Virus record (IMG/VR): IMGVR_UViG_3300017565_000017
Coordinates: 192,779 to 242,859 of that record
Origin: a virus
Taxonomy: Duplodnaviria > Heunggongvirae > Uroviricota > Caudoviricetes
DNA length: 50,081 nucleotides
Reading direction: 5' to 3' (one strand)
Below, in pieces: positions 1 through 48,112 of this stretch. Below the pieces are notes generated by a model, which did not search any database, was not told the DNA's origin, and saw only the letters and a program-made list of their open reading frames with translations. Every line of letters begins with the position of its first letter. Position 1 is the stretch's first letter. The position numbers and the translations under genes are program-made.

Positions 1-376
1 AGCATTTCTTCCAATCCCATCGGGACACTGGGAATACCTTCTCATCAATAAGCTCTTGTAGCGTGTCAGGCCAGTTGATAAGGCGGGCCATAGCCAGCAT
101 AACCGGCAAGTTGGGATTGTCCTCGTACTTTCGGATGATATTGTCGATGATCCAGATCGATACGGTGTCGAGTTGCCGATAAATATTACAAAATCGATTC
201 TCAAGCAGTACTGGATCCTGAGTCCATGGTTTATCTAGACCACGCGCTCGGCGCAGATAAACCATATGGCGCTCGATAACAAACCGAGCATGAGTGTCGT
301 AGCGGTCCAGATTATGTGGATCCGCGCACAGCAGATTGTTATCGGGTGGAATTAAAAGGAGTTGACCTTTAGCCAT
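1..376 (-). CDS. 5-hmdU DNA kinase helical-domain (aGPT-Pplase1 family) protein, N-terminal part; runs off the window edge
   Basis: Not in the ORF track; translated by hand from ATG at 376: MAKGQLLLIPPDNN...RFVIERHMVYLRRARGLDKPWTQDPVLLENRFCNIYRQLDTVSIWIIDNI...ARLINWPDTL. The ER..Y.RR..G...PWT.DP.L...RFCN.YR..D..S.W pattern is typical of this family. Confidence 0.8.
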   Translation of the reverse strand, partial: MAKGQLLLIPPDNNLLCADPHNLDRYDTHARFVIERHMVYLRRARGLDKPWTQDPVLLENRFCNIYRQLDTVSIWIIDNIIRKYEDNPNLPVMLAMARLINWPDTLQELIDEKVFPVSRWDWKKC

Positions 377-713
377 CTTGTTCTTCCCTAATACACAAAA
401 ATCCGCTACTGGTCTTGTAGCGGACAATAGACTTGTTCAAACGTTCAGGTTCCCCAATAGTGGCTGGCAGTGTCCACTGACTCTTAGCCATGACCGTTAC
501 CCGTGTAAGATTACTATTGCGCATTTTCTCGGCGACAATAAAGTTCTTTAGCAGGTAACTCTTCTTAGTACCGTCAGACAGCACGAGCTTTACGTGCGTC
601 GAACTGAATACTACAGACTGGACATAGTGAGTCAGTGGATACCGATAGTCAACCGACTTATTCGGAGCTGAGTGAACGCGCGGGGGCGAGGAATTTCTCT
701 TCGAAGTCTTCAC
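369..713 (-). CDS. hypothetical protein
   Basis: 114-aa ORF in operon orientation, end overlaps the next start codon. Confidence 0.55.
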   Translation of the reverse strand: MKTSKRNSSPPRVHSAPNKSVDYRYPLTHYVQSVVFSSTHVKLVLSDGTKKSYLLKNFIVAEKMRNSNLTRVTVMAKSQWTLPATIGEPERLNKSIVRYKTSSGFLCIREEQDG

Positions 714-2743: not shown

Positions 2744-3892
2744 TTATTTACGAACTACTTGCGGCTTGAATTGGAAAGGAGCCATGCCTTCCGGCTGTAC
2801 CGTCTTAGTCGGTGCCGGGTTGCCAAACAAGGCTTCGGTGTCGTCACGCTGGTCGTCAGCCGGGCTATTACCCTGACCAGCCACCACAACGGGCTCGTCA
2901 TCGTCGATAATCTTCAAAACGGGGTCTTCATCAACTTCAACAGAAGCCTTCGTAGCCACCGTCGACAGAGCGGCCAGCACGGTATCGCTAGGATCTTGCT
3001 GCTCGTACTTGGTCTCAACGCGAACACGCAGTTCAGGTTCGCGCTGCTCCGTAACCGGATCAGCTACAGGTTCGGGGTCCTGCTTCATTTCTGGCTCTGC
3101 CGGAGCGATTGGCGCAGGCATTTCATCGATGAGCAGTTCCTCTTCGAAATCACCGGCCATCGGGGTCGTGAAGATAATCGAAGCAAACATACCGTCCGGC
3201 GAAACAACCGGATAGGCTCCGTGGTAAGCAACCCAATCAACCACAATCCCGTTGATCGAGAACACAGGGTAGTATCCCTGAGCTTCGCCACTCGGGGTAA
3301 ACACAGAGTTCAGATCATCTAGCGTGAAGCCGTTCTGGGCAACCACCAACTTATGACGAATACGGCTACGGGCCGGATTCTCCATGTCGATATCCGGATC
3401 CTGCTCATATTGCAGAATGCTACCCGCCAGCGTAATAGCGTCAATGACAGGCTCTTCGCTACCCGCCGCCGTAAACACGGCCACAAGTTGGGAAGGCGCA
3501 GGCTCTTCCGTCGTTCCGCCCAGATCACCCCAATCACCTTCCATCGGCTCAGCACCCTCGCCTTGAGCCTGAGATTCACTGGCGATATTGCCAACAAGAT
3601 CCTCAAGGTTTGGCTCTTGAGGAGGATCCTGAAGAGCCTTCTCAAGCATATCCTCCATGTATACGTTAATCGTGATATACTCACGATTTTCAATATACGA
3701 TTCGATCGGTACGGCGTTGATCTTGCCCATGTCGTCAAGATACACAACCATGGGCGGATTGCGCTTGGCTGCTGCGCCCTTCAGTCGGGTGTTTGCCAGA
3801 TACAGGACAGTAGATTGACGACCGGTATCTACACGACGCCAGACATGACCCTTACCAAGAAGGGCAAGAGTTTCTTTGGAAATATCAGCCAT
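2744..3892 (-). CDS. acidic hypothetical protein
   Basis: 382-aa ORF, D/E/P-rich; GGAG RBS. Confidence 0.75.
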   Translation of the reverse strand: MADISKETLALLGKGHVWRRVDTGRQSTVLYLANTRLKGAAAKRNPPMVVYLDDMGKINAVPIESYIENREYITINVYMEDMLEKALQDPPQEPNLEDLVGNIASESQAQGEGAEPMEGDWGDLGGTTEEPAPSQLVAVFTAAGSEEPVIDAITLAGSILQYEQDPDIDMENPARSRIRHKLVVAQNGFTLDDLNSVFTPSGEAQGYYPVFSINGIVVDWVAYHGAYPVVSPDGMFASIIFTTPMAGDFEEELLIDEMPAPIAPAEPEMKQDPEPVADPVTEQREPELRVRVETKYEQQDPSDTVLAALSTVATKASVEVDEDPVLKIIDDDEPVVVAGQGNSPADDQRDDTEALFGNPAPTKTVQPEGMAPFQFKPQVVRK

Positions 3893-35548: not shown

Positions 35549-37753
35549 CTATAGTTCCGGTTTGAAGAAAGAATCGCCCGCTTTCCAGCGGCGCTCGAAC
35601 TGCACTTCACATAGCTTTATTTGGTCGGCCAGGGCAGACTCTAGGGTCTTCAAATCGTCCCTTAAACGGTCTTGGTCGTGAGAAGCACGCTTTTCCGCTA
35701 ATCTGCGTTTTAACGACACTATTTCCTTGTATTGTGGGATCTTCTGGATCAGGAACTTTTTCTTAGCGGCAAACTTAGTACCCCGTTTCTTAGTCGCCAC
35801 CGGATTTCCAGCCTGACGCTTCTGGAACTTGAGGGCGATGATCGAATGGAGATTGCGCAAGTCCTTAGTGTCTTCCTTGGTTAGCCCATTCCCAATTCCA
35901 AGATTCCCAATGTCCCAGGGCTCAATGAGGGTCGGAAGATCGGAGAATCCAAACTTCTTAACGTTTTCTGCACTAGCCTTATCTGGCAAGATCAGTAGTC
36001 GGTATGCGTCCATGTCTGGAACACGAATGCTAGATCGTGTTAAGGACTGCACTGCTTGGTCCACAAGGTGGTCTAGATCTGAATTATAGGAAGGACACAG
36101 GGCTTCCATAACTGTCTTGGCCCCTGGATGTGGATTAACGCTCGCCAGGAAGGCAAACACGTGATGCTCAATGTAAGCATTGGAACCTTGGCTCTTAAAC
36201 GGAACAAAGATAATGTCGTCGGCCCCAAATTTCAAAAGCTCTGCTTCACGTTCATAGCTACCATCCCCGACGTTAATCGTAGCCAGCAATGGAGTTGGAT
36301 CGTAGTTACCCTGAGCCTTGTTCCACGCTCGATTTATGTCGACACTACGCTTCAGTAGGTACTGGATTGGAGTATAGGGCTGGAGGTCCGGTAGAGTTTT
36401 GATATACGCTATCAGGTCTTCGTTGTTGGTTCGGAATCGAGACGTTCCACTGTAACCCTTGACCTTTGCTATACCGCGAATGAGATTCCGCAAGATATTG
36501 GGCTTCAGTCCAGCACCGGGGGCTGCATTGAGTTCCATAAGTCCAGAACTCCACAGATCCAGGTTGTCTCCAGGCTCCGGACGCACCACGATCCCATTGT
36601 CCAGGAGTCCCATACTGAGCTTCGACTGACCGGCGGACGCATACGTTATATAAGCCTGGGACCACGCTCGGCGTAACGCACGTTCCTGGATCTGGATGGA
36701 CGGCACACGCTTTTGCTCCAAATGGATAGGGCAGTCGATGTCTTGGATACGACGTTCAAACAAATCGTTGTCTTCCCCGTCCAGAGGTTCGTATCCGGAT
36801 AATCGTAGCATGTGGAACATTTGAGTGTTTTCCAGACGTGCTGCCATGATCGTAACGGTCTTCCATCCGTAAAACACCCGGGCTGGATCCAGAACGGTTT
36901 GGAGCTGTAAGGTGCATGTCCGTGGATTATACTGAGCCTGGCCCATAACACGGACCGCTGACCCGTACACGTGTTCCATAACCCTCTTCAGGTCTTTAAA
37001 CATGCGATCGACCTTTGGAGTGAGTCGATATTGAGCTACGTAGGACTGGAGCGCGTCGTCCAGTTCCTTGCGGGTCAATTTGGACTTGATCTCAATGGGG
37101 GTCCGAGCTTCATGGAGTTCTTGGAGGGGTAGGAACTTGCTGAGCACGCCTTCCAATTCCGGGGGCAAGATCATCTGCTCGGATTGTAGTACGCATTTCT
37201 GGGCTTCGTCAAAGATGACGCTCACGCGTTTGCGGTTAGGGAGCAATGATTTTCCATTTTCCTTGTAGCCGCTGTCCAGGCGTAAGAATGTCTCGTGGGC
37301 CATCATAATGACGGTTCCGCGCTCCAGCTTGGGTACTTCTATGTTGTTGATCCTTATGGACTTGGACACGGCACGCATCAACACCTTGGCTACTTCGCGC
37401 AGCGTGTTGAGTCCCAAGCTCTTCTTTAGGTCGTCGTTGATCTTGAAGATCCGAGGATGGAGGGCTGGGTCGACTCCCATACGAATTTTGTGCCCGATCT
37501 CGTCCAATAGTTTGTGTGTCGGGGCTGTGTAGATGGTGACTCCACTCCCGGTACGGATGCGATTCTGGATCACGCGGATGGCCCAATGGGTTTTACCTCC
37601 GCCGGGGAGCGATGACAGGTAATGTATAGTCTGTGGATGACCGTCTATCGAATAGAGGGGCATGATGTTCCAGTTAGTAAGTCCATGCAGGCTATTAACG
37701 GTATGACGTTTAACGGATTTTGTTAACGGAGGTCCGTTAAACGAGCGCAACAT
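35549..37753 (-). CDS. SF2-helicase-like protein, candidate origin-binding/initiator (true start may be 37663)
   Basis: PGGGKT, APTHKL, IFDEAQ, C-terminal Q..TRS..R; abuts repeat-rich non-coding DNA. Confidence 0.6.
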   Translation of the reverse strand: MLRSFNGPPLTKSVKRHTVNSLHGLTNWNIMPLYSIDGHPQTIHYLSSLPGGGKTHWAIRVIQNRIRTGSGVTIYTAPTHKLLDEIGHKIRMGVDPALHPRIFKINDDLKKSLGLNTLREVAKVLMRAVSKSIRINNIEVPKLERGTVIMMAHETFLRLDSGYKENGKSLLPNRKRVSVIFDEAQKCVLQSEQMILPPELEGVLSKFLPLQELHEARTPIEIKSKLTRKELDDALQSYVAQYRLTPKVDRMFKDLKRVMEHVYGSAVRVMGQAQYNPRTCTLQLQTVLDPARVFYGWKTVTIMAARLENTQMFHMLRLSGYEPLDGEDNDLFERRIQDIDCPIHLEQKRVPSIQIQERALRRAWSQAYITYASAGQSKLSMGLLDNGIVVRPEPGDNLDLWSSGLMELNAAPGAGLKPNILRNLIRGIAKVKGYSGTSRFRTNNEDLIAYIKTLPDLQPYTPIQYLLKRSVDINRAWNKAQGNYDPTPLLATINVGDGSYEREAELLKFGADDIIFVPFKSQGSNAYIEHHVFAFLASVNPHPGAKTVMEALCPSYNSDLDHLVDQAVQSLTRSSIRVPDMDAYRLLILPDKASAENVKKFGFSDLPTLIEPWDIGNLGIGNGLTKEDTKDLRNLHSIIALKFQKRQAGNPVATKKRGTKFAAKKKFLIQKIPQYKEIVSLKRRLAEKRASHDQDRLRDDLKTLESALADQIKLCEVQFERRWKAGDSFFKPEL

Positions 37754-37859
37754 AATTTTCTATAGGCGTGTTACGGACTGACAACGGAACCAGAGTGTAA
37801 TACTGGAACTGCTCAAAAAGTGTCCGTTAAACGAGCGCAACATAATTTTCTATAGGCGT
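37732..37859. repeat. 38-bp perfect direct repeat, 2 copies
   Basis: GTCCGTTAAACGAGCGCAACATAATTTTCTATAGGCGT at 37732-37769 and 37822-37859. Confidence 0.95.
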
Positions 37860-38818
37860 TTAACTGACGGGTTACGGACTACGTCCATGGTACGTAACGT
37901 TCATAGACTGGTAATACAACTGTTTTAAAAAATTTTCGTGGCGCAGCGTAGCGAGCAACGCACGGAGGCCGAAGGCCGACGTGTGTAATGGACACACAAC
38001 ACACTGTCCACTTCCTAGATAATTGGAGGCGGATGTTTTTGTACAAAGTTCCCGGCTTCCAGTCGCTGCGCTCCTTACCGCCGGGACCAACCTCCCTTCG
38101 GTCGGCGTTTTTGTAAGATAAGAGAAAGACCTAGAACCTAGGACTTAGACCCACAATTACACCTCCAATTACTCACTCTACACGGACTCTAATTCGGGAT
38201 AAAATCGGGGCTCCGGCGCTTACCCATGATTACCCCTTACTCACCCTAAAATTCCGTTTTTTACCGTCATTTCTATATCTACCTCTTTACCCCTAACTAA
38301 CCTCTACTTTACCTCTATCATAGGTTCTATACTTCTACTGGTTCTTGTCTATTACAGGTGTGTTCCAACTCCTATCTCTTTACGTACTGTGCCATACCCA
38401 AAATTTTTTAAGAACCACTTATTACCCATGTATCTCATTACCCTGTAGTCTAGGTCTTACACCTATTCTACTTGAGCTAGGAACTGGAACCGGGTACTGT
38501 CATGGGGCGCTCTGCGCCCACATTCAGTTGTAGGTTCGAGGTTCCAACCGGGTCCGGGTATAGGTGCTAACTCCATTTGAGCTAGGGTCTAGTTCCATTT
38601 CCTAGTTCTGAATCTTATTATCTGCGGAGATCGTTTGACTCCGAATTAACTCGGATTTTGTCGGTTTAACTCTTGTTTTTGTCACCCTGTGTATGGGTTA
38701 TATGTCCTGTGTATGAACGGGGGTCTGTGTAGTTCTGAATTGGCTACTGAGGGGGTGGGGTAGTTTTAGGTCCGTACATTGCTTACCTGGGTCTTGTGGT
38801 GTACGGGTCTATGCTTTG

Positions 38819-38892
38819 TCCAGTGTCCTTGGTCATGGTTTCCAGTGTTGTTCTATATCTTGCCCTGGTTTCCAGTGTTGTCCCAGTGTCCT
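38819..38892. repeat. CCAGTGT repeat cluster
   Basis: TGGTTTCCAGTGTTGT at 38836 and 38866; CCAGTGTCCT at 38820 and 38883. Confidence 0.85.
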
Positions 38893-39049
38893 GTTCGTCT
38901 TATCATGACGACTCCACGAACGGAGTCGCTTCGGGGTACTCACCTTCCTCCCCCTTTCACAGATATTACCCGACTCTTGTATTACTTCTTGGATCTTGGA
39001 TTGGAAGGAGCTACGGTGCTCCCATGACTTTTGACTGCGTCAAATGATA

Positions 39050-39093
39050 AAAGGCCGGTTAGGGGCTTAAACTACAAACCCTAACCGGCCTTT
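39050..39093 (-). terminator. 15-bp perfect inverted repeat downstream of kinase gene
   Basis: AAAGGCCGGTTAGGG / CCCTAACCGGCCTTT. Confidence 0.6.
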
Positions 39094-39144
39094 GTTATAC
39101 AACCCTAACCGCTACGGGTTAGGCTCCGGACTTGTTAACAAGTC

Positions 39145-40437
39145 CTAGTTCTTTGCAGCGTGTAGACGCGCTAGGGCTTGACCCAGCGCTTGGGACAGGT
39201 ATTGCACTTCCATTTCCAACATATGGATGTGACCCATCTTGTAGTCCGTGGGTATCTGTTGGGTAGGTAATACTTGACCTAGACCCACTGGACCTGGACC
39301 TGGAACCGGATTGGACGCAGGTACTGGATTTGGACTCACGGGCTCCGTGTTGGGCAGTTCACCCATGAGCTTGTTATACGCCTCATTCCATTTGGCCTCT
39401 TGTTGGGAGTGCCACTCAGCGCTGTAATCACCCTCCAACGGAGGCCACGCCTGATTAGCTGCCTGTGCTGCTTTACGTGCCTTGCGTTCAGCTCTCCGCA
39501 GTTGTCTCCAGCTTCTATAGAAGCGGCGGTACTCAGGCGGAGCATCATCCGCAGGCGCAATCATGTTGTGGTATGTAGAGACCTTCACCTTAGGTGACTT
39601 CTCAGTGCCGGATCCAGTGATACCCGCTTTACGAGCTTCGCGTGCGTCCTGAGCAGCCTTTTCCTTTTCGTATAATTGCTGATCGAACACCATAGCGCGC
39701 TGATCCACGTCATATTTGTAACCCAGAGTGCGCTCCCCGTTCTTATCCAGGGATTGTAATTCGATTTTGATCTCAGGGCGCAGTTCCCACTTGGACTCAG
39801 GTTCCCCAACTTGCCAGCCCTTAGTTGGATCATGGCCGAAAATCTTAGCCACCCACTCCCAACCTTCATTGCGATCCACGTACTTGGCTTGGACCCCCGC
39901 TTCTTCCAGCTTCTTCATGACGCCGGGTACGCTGTTAGCCTTGGAGATCAGGTTGTCAGGGTTGACATCGCTGGCGTTGGGGTCTTTGTCACGGCGACGG
40001 GCATTGACAGCCGCAATGCAGTCATCCATGGATGTGGTAAGGGCAAGGATACGAGACTGACCATTGGTCAGCTTGTTCATCTTGATGGTTTGGATGGCGT
40101 CCCCGGTATATAGGAGACCCTCGTTCAGTACATGATAGCCCTTGGCCCAGAAGTAGGCTACGAGCTCATTCATAGCTGCGTAATGGGAGATCGAATCGAG
40201 GCCACCACAACCGGCCGATCCTGCTTCGTAGTGACCAATGACTGCGAGGGGGCGCTTGCCTTCATTCTCGAACACGTGAGCGATGGGCTGACGCCGACCG
40301 TTCACAAAGTAATTAGTCTTGTACTTGTATTGGGACAAGAGCTTGAACACGATCGTGGTCTTGCCTGATCCTGACGTACCTTTAATACCTACCAGACGTT
40401 GCTTCTCTGGCTTGATCTGGCTCCAGTCTTTTGACAT
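39145..40437 (-). CDS. P-loop nucleotide kinase, putative 5-hmdU DNA kinase, with C-terminal extension
   Basis: GTSGSGKTT; IGHY....CGGLDSI; LNEGLL; C..AVNARR lid; matches the P-loop kinases of hypermodified-thymidine systems as recalled. Confidence 0.7.
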   Translation of the reverse strand: MSKDWSQIKPEKQRLVGIKGTSGSGKTTIVFKLLSQYKYKTNYFVNGRRQPIAHVFENEGKRPLAVIGHYEAGSAGCGGLDSISHYAAMNELVAYFWAKGYHVLNEGLLYTGDAIQTIKMNKLTNGQSRILALTTSMDDCIAAVNARRRDKDPNASDVNPDNLISKANSVPGVMKKLEEAGVQAKYVDRNEGWEWVAKIFGHDPTKGWQVGEPESKWELRPEIKIELQSLDKNGERTLGYKYDVDQRAMVFDQQLYEKEKAAQDAREARKAGITGSGTEKSPKVKVSTYHNMIAPADDAPPEYRRFYRSWRQLRRAERKARKAAQAANQAWPPLEGDYSAEWHSQQEAKWNEAYNKLMGELPNTEPVSPNPVPASNPVPGPGPVGLGQVLPTQQIPTDYKMGHIHMLEMEVQYLSQALGQALARLHAAKN

Positions 40438-40509
40438 TGCAGCATCCTATAAGGGTTTGTGAATGGGGATGAAATTGGGATCCACCCCTACACCTTATTT
40501 ACGATTTCC

Positions 40510-40770
40510 GCACCTGCTCCTGCTCCTGTTGGAGTAGGGTCTTCTGCTGCTTCTGCTGCTGTCGCTGGAGTCATTCCTCCTCTCCTGCTGCTCCTGCAAG
40601 ACTCTCCTGCTGCTGCACCTGGATTCATTCTCCTCTCCTGCTGCTGGAATGGACTCTCCTGCTGCCGCTGGAGTCATTCTCTTCTCCTGCTGCAGAATCA
40701 GATCTCCTGCTGCTGGAATGGACTCTCCTGCAGATCTCCTGCTGGATCTATCTCCTCTCCTGCTGGAATT
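40510..40770 (-). repeat. degenerate tandem CAGGAG repeat tract
   Basis: 12 CAGGAG copies on the minus strand; 29-bp exact repeat at 40634-40662 and 40703-40731. Confidence 0.9.
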
Positions 40771-41090
40771 GAGTCCGAGTCCTAGATCTAAGACCTGGAT
40801 CTTCGTCTCAGATCTGGGATCAGGATCCTCCTCCTAGATCGCGGAGAGCGACTCCGTCTCCCTGAGAGTCTACGTCTCTCCTGGATCCTGATCCCAGATC
40901 TCTGTCAGGGATCCCGGTCATGGGCGTCTATCATGGACGTCCAAGATTCCCCCTGGCCCGATCGCCGTCTGAATATTCAGATCTACGATCACCATGTGGG
41001 ATCCTGCTCATTGCTCCTAGATCCTGCTCACAGAGGGAGACTGGCGGCAACTGGATCTAGTGCATTGGACCGCGGAACTGGATCAGGGTC

Positions 41091-41492
41091 TTAGATCGTG
41101 GACGGGGACTCCTCTTCGGTAGAAATGTGGATCTGACCCAGGAGCTTGACGAGGCGAATGAATGGCTCGTGCAGTGACTCTGGGATGATACTCGCGTTCC
41201 GCTGAACACGCGCCGCATAGTGGCGGGCAGGCAACGGAAAGGAGTGGGGGCGCAGCATCGCTGCTTGTGTGTCGTGCAGATCTTGCAGCCAGTTGAGGAG
41301 CTTGACGAAGTCCTCTTCTGTCTTGTTCTTGATCCACAGATTGAATTCGTAGATTTCCCAGCTATTAAGCCACCGCTCGTCCTGGCGCAGCACGGCAAAG
41401 CGCTCGCGCAACAGGTCAGAACTGAGGCAACTGTGACACCGCTGCATGAACTCGGTGCCTAGTCTGTAGCTGTAGTCGTGATGTACGGTCAT
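41091..41492 (-). CDS. hypothetical early protein
   Basis: Likely start MTVHH at 41492, below a sigma70 promoter. Confidence 0.6.
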   Translation of the reverse strand: MTVHHDYSYRLGTEFMQRCHSCLSSDLLRERFAVLRQDERWLNSWEIYEFNLWIKNKTEEDFVKLLNWLQDLHDTQAAMLRPHSFPLPARHYAARVQRNASIIPESLHEPFIRLVKLLGQIHISTEEESPSTI

Positions 41493-41531: not shown

Positions 41532-41560
41532 ATTATGCACGGTTTTAAAAGGGGGCGCAA
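41532..41560 (-). promoter_or_regulatory. sigma70 promoter (leftward)
   Basis: TTGCGC-17-CATAAT. Confidence 0.7.
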
Positions 41561-41607
41561 CTCCTTGTATTACTCCGACTTTTTGCAAAAACGGGGCGGC
41601 TCCCAGT

Positions 41608-41636
41608 TTGCTATTTTTGCGCCCCCGTGCTATATT
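41608..41636 (+). promoter_or_regulatory. sigma70 early promoter
   Basis: TTGCTA-17-TATATT with extended -10 TG. Confidence 0.8.
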
Positions 41637-41688
41637 AAGGGCTGGCTAATACCCCTAGCCAGTAACCCTAACCGTAAAGGCAAACCGT

Positions 41689-42315
41689 ATGTCCCAGACC
41701 CTTGTTCCCCTGTCCCGCGATCAGATCATCGCTCACTACGTCTCCCAGTTGGGTAAGACTCAGGGTGTGGATCGAGGCCCGGACCTCCCTGTCGTGCCGT
41801 ATGTGTGCGCGTTCTTCGCTGATCTCATGTCCGGGGATTGCGATTCCTTCGAACCCTTTGATGAAGCTCGCCACGAGGTTCCGTTTCCGAAGTACTCGTA
41901 CCTCGCACTCAATGCTCTCGTGTCCGGTACTCTGCCTATCAACTCTGAGAACGACGAGGATGTCGAATGCCTCTGGGATAACGTCGATTACTTCGACGGC
42001 ACTCTCGGCTATTGGGCTGCTTCTGTTCAGGACTCGAAGCATCAGCCTCAGCCCGAAGCTCTGGCGGATCTTGAGATCTGGCTTCGGGAAGACCCTCTGG
42101 TTCGCGCTCCGTTGCTTGCCCGCTTCGTATGGTTCAACTCGGATTACGAGCAGGCGGAAACGCACGGTCGAGATCGAGAGTACGACATCAATGCCGATAA
42201 CTACGGCGAGTTCTATGGCCCGGCTCCAATGTCTGCCGCAGAATCTGCAGCGGCTATCCCGGAAAATCTCCACGAAGTCACCATCGACATCTACGAATTG
42301 GCCTGCAACGACTAA
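41689..42315 (+). CDS. early hypothetical protein, paralog family A
   Basis: 208 aa after promoter; shares motifs with the 42418 ORF. Confidence 0.8.
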   Translation: MSQTLVPLSRDQIIAHYVSQLGKTQGVDRGPDLPVVPYVCAFFADLMSGDCDSFEPFDEARHEVPFPKYSYLALNALVSGTLPINSENDEDVECLWDNVDYFDGTLGYWAASVQDSKHQPQPEALADLEIWLREDPLVRAPLLARFVWFNSDYEQAETHGRDREYDINADNYGEFYGPAPMSAAESAAAIPENLHEVTIDIYELACND

Positions 42316-42334
42316 TCCCTGACCCGCCCGGGGG

Positions 42335-42363
42335 TTGCGCGTAGCGCGCCCCCGTGTTATATT
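42335..42363 (+). promoter_or_regulatory. sigma70 early promoter
   Basis: TTGCGC-17-TATATT, extended -10. Confidence 0.8.
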
Positions 42364-42417
42364 TGTGTACGGCGTAACCCCGCGCCCTAATGCCCTAACC
42401 GTAAAAAGGTACACCGT

Positions 42418-42948
42418 ATGTACGACACTACCATGATCCCCCTCCAGAATCTGCCCTGGCTTTCTGCGTTTATCCAGGACCTGTTCCCACCCGATGGTAG
42501 CGCTGGGGACGGGGAGCTGGATTACTTCGACGAAGCTGCCCGCGAAGCCAAGCACACCCCGTTCGTGTTCCCGCTGTTTATGTCCCTGATCCAGGGCAAG
42601 AACCTGCCTCCCACTGACTATATGTACGCTAAACATATGTACGTCACTCACACGGAGGCCGAGCTCCAGCTCCTAACTGAACTCAATGTCTGGTTGTCCC
42701 GGGATATCAGCCATGCTGTGTTCCTTGCCGAGTTCCTGTGGTACTCTTCGGATTATTGTTGGATTGAATTGCACGAGGTTGAGAGGCCCGAGGTGTATGA
42801 AGATTCGGAGCCGGAACCTGGGTCTATCCGTCGGTACAAGTACACGGGGGCGGGGCCGACGTCGGCTCCTATCTTTGCCTCTCTGGTCCCCCAGAAGTTC
42901 CATGCGATCATGGGGCGTTGGTTCACTCAGATGTGCTACTACGGGTAA
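42418..42948 (+). CDS. early hypothetical protein, paralog family A
   Basis: 176 aa; FDEA, L.VWL..D, LAEFLWYSSDY, GPTSA. Confidence 0.8.
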   Translation: MYDTTMIPLQNLPWLSAFIQDLFPPDGSAGDGELDYFDEAAREAKHTPFVFPLFMSLIQGKNLPPTDYMYAKHMYVTHTEAELQLLTELNVWLSRDISHAVFLAEFLWYSSDYCWIELHEVERPEVYEDSEPEPGSIRRYKYTGAGPTSAPIFASLVPQKFHAIMGRWFTQMCYYG

Positions 42949-42958
42949 GGGGCGTAAC

Positions 42959-43492
42959 ATGGGAACTTCTGCATCCATTATCTGCCACACTGGCTCCTAC
43001 ACGTGGGCTAACGACGTTCACTACGATGGTGACCTGTCTCACGTGGGTCTGCTCTTGGTCAACGCGTACCCCCGTCTTGAGGTCATTCAGCCCCTGGTCC
43101 ACGGCGGTTCCATGTCGGGCCTCGCCGCCATGTCTGGTTATCCGGCCCTCGATGATGACGATCGCGAGAAGATGCGTATGGCCGAGATCATGCGCACTCA
43201 CCATGATCGTCCCTACATGAAGAATCTGGTCTCGGTCTATTACCACCGAGACAAGAAAGAGCCTTGGGACCTCTGCAAGTATCGCACGTACAACTCGCTG
43301 GCCGAAGCGATCAAGGGTGAAACCTGCGACTATGTGTACGTGTGGCATGAGCCGACTCAGCGTTGGTATTGGGCGAATTGCGAGCAGCATCCTCGGTCGC
43401 TGACATCCAAGATACTGGCTGCTCGTCAGCCCGTGGTTGGTGTGCCTCTGTCCATTGCTTTGGAACACCAGCGTAAGAGCCCAGGCGCGTAA
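42959..43492 (+). CDS. conserved-type phage hypothetical protein
   Basis: Start MGTSASI; H.DG....VG..L...Y and CDYVYVW motifs typical of a widespread phage family. Confidence 0.75.
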   Translation: MGTSASIICHTGSYTWANDVHYDGDLSHVGLLLVNAYPRLEVIQPLVHGGSMSGLAAMSGYPALDDDDREKMRMAEIMRTHHDRPYMKNLVSVYYHRDKKEPWDLCKYRTYNSLAEAIKGETCDYVYVWHEPTQRWYWANCEQHPRSLTSKILAARQPVVGVPLSIALEHQRKSPGA

Positions 43493-43505
43493 CGCTACAT
43501 GGGGC

Positions 43506-43534
43506 TTGCGCCCCCGCCCCCACTGCTATATAAT
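43506..43534 (+). promoter_or_regulatory. sigma70 early promoter
   Basis: TTGCGC-17-TATAAT. Confidence 0.85.
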
Positions 43535-43588
43535 GTGGTACGGGCTACCCCTGGCCCTAAGTAAACCCTAACCGTATAGGCTAACCCC

Positions 43589-44215
43589 ATGTCCCTCCCT
43601 CACTTCAATCCGAACACGGCCGACGTCAGCAACGTGCGGGGCGTCCTCATGAACGCGCTCCGTACGTCGGCAGCCCTGGACCAGGAACGTGCGTATTCGA
43701 CGATCACTCATGTTCTGGCTATTGCCCAGGACGTGTATGAGATTCGTCTTCATGAAATCGAGCGCATCGTTGCCAGCAGCGCCACGAATGCCATCCAGGT
43801 GTTCCAGTACATCACCCGTGCTCTCGAGTCGATTCGCAACGAGCGGTGGGAGCTGCCGAAAAACGAGCTGGCTCCGACCCATTCGTACGACACGTACCAG
43901 CTTACTCGGCTCACGATCCTTCTGTGCAACATCGTGGCGCAGGACATTCCTGTCGTTGGTCTGTACCAGCGCCATTATGAAATGGTGCCTCTCATGGATC
44001 GCTACTACATTCTGCGGGCTAATCTCGTTCGGCTCAATGCGGAGTTCGACGAACTTGAGCAGAAGTCGGATGGTGATGATGATGCTGATGAGGAGGCCAT
44101 GGAAGAAATGCGCCCGTTCATCACCCCGATCTATGACGCTGTCGAGCAGATGCGTTTGCACCTGAACAAGAAGTTGGGTTTCGTCGGCGTCGAGATTCAA
44201 GGCGCTGCCTTCTAA
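43589..44215 (+). CDS. early hypothetical protein
   Basis: 208 aa between promoter and terminator. Confidence 0.8.
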   Translation: MSLPHFNPNTADVSNVRGVLMNALRTSAALDQERAYSTITHVLAIAQDVYEIRLHEIERIVASSATNAIQVFQYITRALESIRNERWELPKNELAPTHSYDTYQLTRLTILLCNIVAQDIPVVGLYQRHYEMVPLMDRYYILRANLVRLNAEFDELEQKSDGDDDADEEAMEEMRPFITPIYDAVEQMRLHLNKKLGFVGVEIQGAAF

Positions 44216-44284: not shown

Positions 44285-44331
44285 GACTCCAGGTCTAAGA
44301 TCTTCGTCCTAGATCTAAGAGAGCGACTCCG
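44285..44331 (+). repeat. 47-bp GA/TC-rich intergenic box
   Basis: Near-identical to 47141-47187; 3' half also at 40836-40856. Confidence 0.85.
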
Positions 44332-46643: not shown

Positions 46644-46666
46644 CCTAAAGCTGCACTAATTACCCC

Positions 46667-46692
46667 GGGGGCGCGCTGTGCGCCCCTTTTTA
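46667..46692 (+). terminator. intrinsic terminator
   Basis: GGGGCGC-GCTGT-GCGCCCC then TTTTT. Confidence 0.8.
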
Positions 46693-46756
46693 TTTGCGCA
46701 CGTGTACACGGTTTACAACGCCTAAAAATATTTTTATTGTTTTACACGTTAGGGGG

Positions 46757-46785
46757 TTGCACAAGTGTATAACACGCCCTATAAT
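46757..46785 (+). promoter_or_regulatory. strong sigma70 promoter with AT-rich UP element
   Basis: TTGCAC-17-TATAAT. Confidence 0.9.
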
Positions 46786-46878
46786 ACATACATGGATCGC
46801 AAAACAGCGAACCTAACCTAGCAAACCGGGCATGGTGCCCGGTAGTAAACCTCCCACTGTAGGGAAAGGAGAAGTTCC

Positions 46879-47140: not shown

Positions 47141-47187
47141 GACTCTAGGTCTTAGATCTGAGTCCAAGATCGTGGAGAGCGAGTCCG
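47141..47187 (+). repeat. 47-bp GA/TC-rich intergenic box
   Basis: Second copy of 44285-44331. Confidence 0.85.
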
Positions 47188-47727: not shown

Positions 47728-47752
47728 GGAGCCTCCCGGGGCTCCTCTTTTT
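47728..47752 (+). terminator. intrinsic terminator
   Basis: GGAGCCTC-CCG-GGGCTCC then TCTTTTT. Confidence 0.8.
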
Positions 47753-47834
47753 GTTTGTAACAAATGGGCTTTACATATAGGTAATATGTTTTACCTAGGG
47801 TTTGCCGGTATAGCCTGTTTATATGGTGTATACT

Positions 47835-48112
47835 GCGTTTGTTGGTTGCTGCCTTGCAGTAACGCAAACGCCCCCCTACAAAGCCCCTAGGGGGCGCGTA
47901 TAGGCCACAAGTTTACGGTAGGGCTGTAGTGATAGCCGGTCAGTGCGACGCAACGTCCACTCGGTATCCGCAGCCCGGTTAGGGGGAGGTTTCTCTAGGG
48001 GTAGAGAACCTCCACTCGGTTCTCAGCGCAGTGATGTGTTGAGGGTATTCGCTTCTCCCGGCGAATAGACGACCCGGTAGCTCTTAATCGAGCTACCGGG
48101 TCGCTGAGTTTT
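47835..48112 (+). ncRNA. candidate structured non-coding RNA
   Basis: ORF-free; seven consecutive hairpins ending in a 14-bp perfect stem and T-run. Confidence 0.6.

Follow-up and report, generated by a model that had tools for sequence, protein, structure and literature searches.

Iteron arrays mark replication origins of plasmids and phages, among them P1 oriR, R6K, RK2, F and lambda ori. Centromere and operator arrays are bound by small dimeric repressors, as in R1 parC with ParR and in the omega heptads of pSM19035. Among phages, the P1 pac site contains GATC-containing hexamers, T7 carries the SRL and SRR heptamer arrays beside its terminal repeat, and the T5 injection-stop region, on the inner boundary of the early genes, is non-coding DNA full of repeats and palindromes. 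At the RNA level, CsrB, RsmY and RsmZ sequester CsrA/RsmA through repeated GGA motifs. Here we describe a non-coding repeat block in a phage genome from IMG/VR and weigh it against these systems. A preliminary description had read the block as a CsrB/RsmZ-type sponge or Shine-Dalgarno decoy or, alternatively, as a DNA-level element rich in TC steps. In papers on phage CsrA sponges and on repeats of the phiRSL1/Sarumanvirus group we found no such element.

Gene order and the repeat tract

The window, by which we mean the whole 50,081-nt stretch of DNA analysed, is the right end (positions 192779-242859) of a 242,859-bp IMG/VR virus record. The DNA polymerase of this phage shares 52% identity with its counterpart in Achromobacter phage Motura and 44-47% with those of BcepSauron, BCSR5 and phiRSL1, and the genome carries the pathway genes HMUDK_hel (PF18723, window 2-427) and a thymidylate-synthase-like gene. 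From these polymerase identities, and from these genes together with the kinase homologue described below, we place the phage by sequence among the uncultured jumbo phages of the broad Motura/BcepSauron/phiRSL1 group, with thymidine in its DNA probably hypermodified. At least 40 tracts of 80-206 nt in the genome are free of any GA or TC, where about none would be expected, and these tracts coincide with promoter/leader regions (in the window, for example, 41603-41692, 42323-42424, 43479-43592, 46644-46795 and 47748-47931), which fits promoters avoiding a DNA modification in TC context. A preference for TS dinucleotides (TG/TC) has been inferred for related modifications in other phages (PMC6449724). 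Separately, another contig, of 251,081 bp and so exceeding the record by 8 kb, represents the same phage, as it encodes a 704-aa protein 100% identical to the one here; either part of the genome may be missing from the record or the longer contig may contain terminal redundancy.

Between 658 and 41588 every gene lies on the minus strand, and small plus-strand genes follow from 41689 on. The block occupies a 653-nt gap (40438-41090, minus strand) with no ORF longer than 60 aa on the gene strand. It is flanked upstream by a short minus-strand ORF (41091-41492, with an ATG at 41492 and a TTG-extended form to 41588) and downstream by a minus-strand P-loop gene (39145-40437), a position that agrees with the one upstream of the kinase gene given for it before. 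The ORFs neighbouring the block matched no family, and conservation of the upstream ORF was absent in three relatives (L006, L005 and L011). The P-loop protein (430 aa) comprises a basic helix that forms a conserved basic region, a Pro-rich linker and a C-terminal helix. In tblastn comparisons with the PaMx11 gp49 locus it showed 33-36% identity over 200 aa (E 1e-17 to 1e-19), its relatives being PaMx11/Ab18-type Pseudomonas phage proteins that adjoin an acetyltransferase; PaMx11 gp49 has been shown by experiment to be a 5-hmdU DNA kinase (PMC8989533). Its AlphaFold model (pLDDT 75) matches polynucleotide and NMP kinases. Homology and predicted fold thus bear out the earlier assignment of a kinase gene beside the block and support a putative 5-hmdU DNA kinase of the thymidine hypermodification type. 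PHROGs labels the protein a small terminase (phrog_800), an identity we rejected, as the PaMx11-type relatives are 5-hmdU DNA kinases and the fold is polynucleotide-kinase-like; because the "terminase small subunit" label of phrog_800 and of RefSeq PaMx11-like phages conflicts with the published biochemistry (PMC8989533) and with this fold, it is probably a propagated misannotation.

A candidate sigma-70-like leftward promoter (TTGCGC, 17 nt, CATAAT; 41532-41560, minus strand), recognised by eye, would transcribe through the block; a consensus promoter scan did not call it, and one distant relative (L011) has a similar arrangement. Scanning the minus strand revealed no terminator-like site, and no promoter was called inside the block. 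The array is bordered on its 3' side by the promoter-like motif CGTAAATA (40496-40503, minus strand), which points away from it. The form (C)CGTAAATA, reminiscent of T4 late TATAAATA, is found 13-60 nt upstream of many minus-strand genes (window 40496, 34671, 17065, 3928 and 2745) and 5-14 nt upstream of three tRNA genes (genome 116139, 124891 and 128706); because of these positions it is probably a phage promoter element. As the array lies upstream of the kinase gene's own CGTAAATA, it would enter RNA only by read-through from the promoter at about 41532-41560.

The 3' half of the block is a direct-repeat array (40505-40790, minus strand) of 11 canonical GCAGGAG units (40517-40763) with degenerate GCGGAG/GCGGAA units, spaced at multiples of 10.4 nt. 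The units share about 10 conserved nucleotides, with a core logo of CAGCAGGAG(A), between variable flanks. The 12 CAGGAG units in about 250 nt that had first drawn attention to the locus are indeed there, as 12 plus-strand CTCCTG within 40517-40762 (246 nt), with a 13th at 40878; the gap thus holds 13 of the 68 CTCCTG copies in the whole genome (19.9 per kb versus 0.28 per kb for the genome). Likewise, the window has 17 GCAGGAG when both strands are counted, and 11 of these, every one on the minus strand, fall within 40517-40763; its dinucleotide shuffles contained 7.3 +/- 2.8, none reaching 17. We also recovered the further CAGGA(T/G) motifs reported up to 41030 (TCCTG at 40879, 40886, 41002 and 41022) and the three quoted stems (GATC-cagcagga-GATC, GACTC-cagcggcagcagga-GAGTC and ATTCT...AGAAT), and the overlapping ORFs were short (46-108 aa) and, as described, of low complexity. 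Tandem Repeats Finder reported periods of 49 and 21 on the block. Its sense strand is purine-rich, its GC content is 0.54-0.57, and, in line with the GA/TC density noted earlier, it is the non-coding stretch of the genome densest in GA/TC (0.29 versus 0.129); the only regions as dense are minus-strand Asp/Glu-rich coding stretches at genome 165600-166100 and 185100-185950. We conclude that the repeat tract is genuine, far from random and subject to selection.

The 5' half (40771-41090) is rich in GATC, holding 20 of the 21 copies in the gap (32 per kb versus 4.6 per kb); the whole block has six AGATCT and five GGATCC. Nested inverted repeats pair 40792-40828 with 40883-40919 and 40771-40801 with 41081-41111. 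The most conserved island of this half, GGCCAGGGGGAATCYTGGACGTCC...CCCATGACC (40914-40960, minus strand), consists of invariant alignment columns and is unique in the genome. A second core, TAGATCTAGGACTC...ATTCCAGCAGGAGAGGAGATAGATCCAGCAGGAG (40765-40800, minus strand), runs into the array to about 40735, and five loci hardly differ over the corresponding 50 nt or so, TAGATCTAGGACTC...CCAGCAGGAGAGGAGATAGATCCAGCAGGAG. On the plus strand, a quasi-palindrome, CTCCTAGATCGCGGAG, is joined to a box, CTAGATCGCGGAGAGCGACTCCG (40831-40856); at the matching position one relative (L008) has a perfect 24-bp palindrome. GATC-centred palindromes number two to four per block in L003, L006 and L008 (14-bp TCCnnGATCnnGGA) and one in the window, and their half-site, (T)AGGAGAG, resembles the array unit. 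The 23-nt box CTAGATC..GGAGAGCGACTCCG (40834-40856) has only three copies in the genome, all on the plus strand, the other two (44309-44331 and 47165-47187) each lying in the interval that separates a terminator from the next early promoter. The block is in a region read leftward, whereas 44309 and 47165 are in regions read rightward; among relatives, the orientation of the box inside the block varies.

Beyond the kinase gene is a second long non-coding stretch (37754-39144, 1.4 kb), which is poorly conserved and contains at most one GCAGGAG per locus. A direct repeat of 57 nt (37732/37822) and a repeat of 16 nt (38836/38866) occur in it, positions 38100-38500 are AT-rich, and a perfect 15-bp hairpin lies at 39050-39093.

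Conservation and helical phasing

Searching public assemblies with the kinase yielded seven relatives, at 99, 79, 79, 75, 54, 48 and 48% identity, whose contigs we fetched; the conservation counts given here cover loci recovered through the kinase gene whose contigs reach upstream of it. The block was kept in all seven of these loci (eight of eight with the window), including those whose kinases are only 48-54% identical. Four of the blocks (L012, L003, L006 and L008) could be aligned with that of the window, and the other three (L009, L005 and L011) have the same architecture. On the kinase strand, each locus has a word-rich 5' part (GATC, GANTC and TAGGA) followed by the array, which ends in GCGGAAATCGTAAATA, a junction conserved among the loci. 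The arrays contain 5-11 canonical GCAGGAG units with degenerate GCGGAG/GCGGAA units interspersed. Only 24% of kinase third codon positions are invariant among the four closer phages, and identity at these positions is 33-41%, that is, saturated, versus the distant loci; as the array persists where synonymous sites of the kinase are saturated, it appears to be under constraint.

The relatives also differ in informative ways. In L012, whose kinase is 99% identical, the unit content differs from that of the window, and a 560-bp HNH/NUMOD4 endonuclease gene separates the array from CGTAAATA. An endonuclease-like ORF follows the promoter motif in L003, and a distance of 1.4 kb separates the kinase gene of L005 from the array and its promoter-like end. 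A strict promoter-proximal geometry is therefore not required; this makes a simple operator model less likely, and the candidates left are an RNA element and a cis-site that acts autonomously. The additional ORFs near the array-kinase junction are an HNH_3/NUMOD4 gene (L012:1273-1806, minus strand), a 271-aa endonuclease-like ORF (L003:4193-5008) and a 309-aa ORF (L009:1410-2339); because three different ORFs sit at slightly different points, the junction looks like a hot spot for mobile insertions. In L005, the most distant relative, a direct repeat of about 35 nt (GTTCCTTCGGAAGGGACAGAAATCG..., at about 3218-3255 and 3631-3665) brackets the array, and a strong hairpin (GGGCCCATCACC/GGTGATGGGCCC) follows it.

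Beyond these loci, we found no similar DNA in cultured phages and no kinase relatives in IMG/VR, and exact conserved words in IMG/VR matched only the phage's own record. JGI metagenomes and GTDB genomes yielded only distant short kinases, and the one checked (L015) had no array. Achromobacter phage Motura has a different gene order and is therefore uninformative. Two kinase-less contigs of about 81 kb from two samples (L026:1-137 and L027:1-136) end at the same base, 136 nt upstream of a homologue of window 35549-37753; this shared end is either a real genome end or an assembly-breaking repeat in that more distant relative.

From one canonical unit to the next, the spacings (21, 11, 21, 20, 31, 41, 42, 72, 84 and so on) follow the helical repeat of DNA. 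The best period was 10.35-10.4 nt, with a mean cosine of 0.62-0.66 (n = 40-47), a value reached by none of 5000 null draws in which each spacing was jittered by +/-5 nt. Phasing was significant in the three distant loci alone (p ~2e-4), where the spacers are unrelated in sequence, and in the window alone (p = 0.006), and using all GGA as anchors left the period unchanged. No 10.4-nt periodicity was seen for TC on the sense strand, and GA peaked only at about 21.5 nt. Some of the phasing could come from descent from a 21-nt tandem unit.

Alternative readings of the block

Weighing these observations, we lean towards the block being a DNA-level, one-face protein-binding array, of an iteron- or centromere-like or a regulatory kind. 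Whole multiples of 10.4 nt separate the canonical units, all eight loci retain the array despite saturated synonymous sites, and the units are conserved as sequence of about 10 nt, not as pairing potential; each of these points argues for a DNA-level array, as do the GATC-centred palindromes in L003, L006, L008 and the window and the box copies that share a genomic strand despite opposite transcription. RNA folding argues in the same direction, since folding energies below those of shuffles were alike on both strands (z = -3.0/-2.3 and -3.9/-4.4), which is what DNA inverted repeats give. Under this reading, the 3' half would provide about 11-14 short binding sites (core CAGCAGGAG) on one helix face, where copies of a sequence-specific DNA-binding protein would bind side by side to form a nucleoprotein complex, and the 5' half would supply GATC-centred palindromic sites of related sequence (..CTCC-NN-GATC-NN-GGAG..). 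The site may be activated or crossed by early transcription. Repeats, conservation, phasing, palindromes and kinase linkage are all observed; we infer that a protein binds and what the resulting complex does.

Several findings count against a DNA-level array. As for a binding protein, the phage has no ParB or ParB_N, the modelled kinase tail has no obvious DNA-binding fold, and the upstream ORF is not conserved. All units share the local transcription direction in eight of eight loci, and the block always lies downstream of an early promoter with no terminator, an arrangement that an RNA element would explain too.

As to function, a tentative first choice, slightly favoured, is an autonomous cis-site of the iteron, centromere or packaging kind that heads the replication-gene module, because the array is parted from the kinase promoter motif by the endonuclease gene in L012 and lies 1.4 kb from the kinase gene in L005. 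Next, and somewhat more doubtful, is a regulatory platform for the kinase gene that is linked to its promoter. The preliminary alternative of a TC-rich DNA element fits better than the RNA reading, given the phasing, the palindromes, the same-strand box and the hypermodification context. Packaging is unsupported: the neighbour is not a terminase, and the relatives' contigs pass through the block and break at different places elsewhere; searches for Terminase_6N and 6C to place the terminase returned nothing. The hallmarks of an origin are incomplete: no DnaA box with up to one mismatch was found in 40438-41090, the block has no AT-rich unwinding element, the nearest AT-rich stretch (38100-38500) being on the far side of the kinase gene, and GC skew was flat and uninformative.

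RNA-level roles as a whole appear unlikely to us. Apart from a CsrA sponge, the long untranslated stretch of the early transcript might act as a decoy, either of ribosomes (AGGAG) or of Hfq (AGC-AGC-AGG-AGA follows the ARN repeat rule), might be cleaved by a RegB-like nuclease that recognises GGAG, or might, as purine-rich RNA, form a stable R-loop that primes replication; jointly, these variants are a shade less probable still. They would be consistent with the strict sense orientation in eight loci, the purine-rich sense strand, the lack of a terminator, the conserved order of early promoter, short variable ORF and block, and G-U-compatible changes, some substitutions preserving G-U pairs on the sense strand. 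However, an RNA role does not account for helical phasing or for a box shared antisense to local transcription, the degenerate units break the ARN register, and there is no conserved structure: RNAalifold on the 5' half gave a covariation term of +1.19, which is no support, from four sequences only, too few to exclude structure.

Two further readings start from the putative hypermodification. Returning to the protein-binding array, a doubtful extension makes it a modification-coupled element, a phased row of kinase targets that adjoins the gene for the putative 5-hmdU DNA kinase and is the counterpart of the early promoters, which are GA/TC-free and modification-proof. Depending on how heavily its thymidines are hypermodified, such an element would bind proteins differently or change its DNA shape, and would thereby signal to kinase expression, replication or packaging how far the genome has been modified. 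About as doubtful is a reading with no sequence-specific binder, in which bulky or charged side chains on a dense patch of hypermodified TC steps would change DNA mechanics for packaging, ejection or protection. The kinase homologue, HMUDK_hel and thymidylate-synthase-like genes, the GA/TC-free promoter tracts, the status of the block as the densest non-coding GA/TC patch and the TS-dinucleotide preference inferred for related modifications (PMC6449724) are consistent with such a patch, but TC lacks the 10.4-nt periodicity (GA peaking at about 21.5 nt only), the conserved 10-nt motif exceeds what a TC requirement would explain, and modification and its context are putative in this phage.

We consider it improbable that the block is a functionless, fast-evolving minisatellite or a mobile-repeat remnant. 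The different unit content of the window and L012 despite 99% identical kinases, the homing endonuclease genes inserted beside the array and the direct repeat bracketing it in L005 are what such a tract might show; against this, core, orientation and phasing are retained across phages with saturated synonymous sites, and there is one array per genome.

The CsrB/RsmZ-type sponge, in which a minus-strand transcript would expose GGA motifs and sequester host CsrA/RsmA, is very unlikely. The sequence does hold many GGA (19 in the 290-nt array and 33 in 590 nt) and many CAGGAG, and, given read-through, the block would be transcribed from the early promoter. Nevertheless, Rfam covariance models gave no match, and no Csr/Rsm family appeared up to E = 10. 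In partition-function folds, the mean unpaired probability of GGA was 0.25 in the window and 0.32-0.42 in relatives, below that of shuffles (0.43-0.50), whereas E. coli CsrB, folded in the same way, gave 0.80 versus 0.54 for its shuffles. The predicted pairing is generic, UCC with GGA, and buries the motif; as GGA is preferentially paired in these in silico folds, the exposed loops expected of a sponge are not predicted, and burial of GGA in stems is an outcome that the preliminary description had itself named as refuting a sponge. The flanks of a unit are no more complementary to each other than to those of other units and form no unit-specific hairpin: in 86 units from seven loci, a unit's own flanks paired at -6.27 kcal/mol versus -6.21 kcal/mol for mismatched flanks, and 2080 of 5000 permutations were as good. 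The covariation term is likewise no help, the block lacks a promoter and terminator of its own, and 10.4-nt phasing has no RNA rationale. The phage genome encodes no CsrA gene, and related cultured phages infect Burkholderiales, for which, to our knowledge, no Csr system is described. In these predictions the sponge reading fails every computable structural criterion, and the Shine-Dalgarno decoy first proposed alongside it is likewise not supported.

That the block encodes a low-complexity protein can be set aside: ORFs of 46-108 aa overlap it and a 100-aa gene is called in L008, but neither the unit spacings (9, 11, 13, 20, 21, 28 and 31) nor the gaps in the alignment with relatives come in multiples of three, all frames contain stops and none is conserved.

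Four more specific candidates were rejected. A Chi-like array (plus-strand GCTGCTGG versus E. coli GCTGGTGG) does not fit, as conservation centres on CTCCTGCTG instead of the Chi-like portion, and phasing plays no part in Chi. A Type III (CAGCAG) orientation bias is not seen, one genome strand having 108 CAGCAG and 112 CTGCTG. A Dam- or CcrM-regulated element is discounted because the phage encodes neither methyltransferase type, and a ParB centromere because ParB_N is absent.

Comparison with known systems

If the block is a docking site, it marks a new cis-acting locus (an origin, a packaging or partition site, or a regulatory hub) in an uncultured jumbo-phage clade related to phiRSL1, Motura and BcepSauron, in which replication and packaging signals are poorly known. 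Its linkage to a hypermodification kinase and to GA/TC-avoiding promoters makes it a place to test how hypermodified DNA works with DNA-binding proteins. The analysis also removes the attractive but unsupported claim of a phage-encoded CsrA sponge.

Set beside CsrB, RsmY and RsmZ (Rfam RF00018, RF00166 and RF00195), the block likewise packs many GGA repeats into a few hundred non-coding nucleotides, with a CAGGAG close to their CAGGA(U/A/C)G, but its GGA motifs are predicted to be buried, it is no discrete sRNA unit and matches no covariance model, and its repeats are helically phased with a longer conserved core. The P1 pac site and T7 SRL/SRR resemble it in having short repeats and GATC clusters within non-coding phage DNA; here, however, the gene next door encodes a DNA kinase rather than a small terminase, the phage lacks Dam, and the contigs of relatives end elsewhere than at the block. 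The parC/ParR and omega arrays share with it a short site present as phased direct repeats and inverted pairs upstream of a promoter, but we found no ParR, ParM, ParB or omega homologue, and the spacers are variable and long. Compared with the T5 injection-stop region, the block is similarly repeat- and palindrome-rich non-coding DNA bordering early genes with host-type promoters, although neither two-step transfer nor fixed ends are evidenced here. With iteron arrays it has in common direct repeats in one orientation at whole helical turns (mostly 21 nt), a position heading replication genes and an adjoining GATC cluster, as in P1 oriR; its core is only about 10 nt, the block has no AT-rich unwinding element or DnaA box, and no initiator gene was recognised. 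The best-supported description that emerges is of a helically phased array, probably protein-binding and accompanied by palindromic sites, that lies where the early genes border on the replication module and is linked to the gene for a hypermodification kinase.
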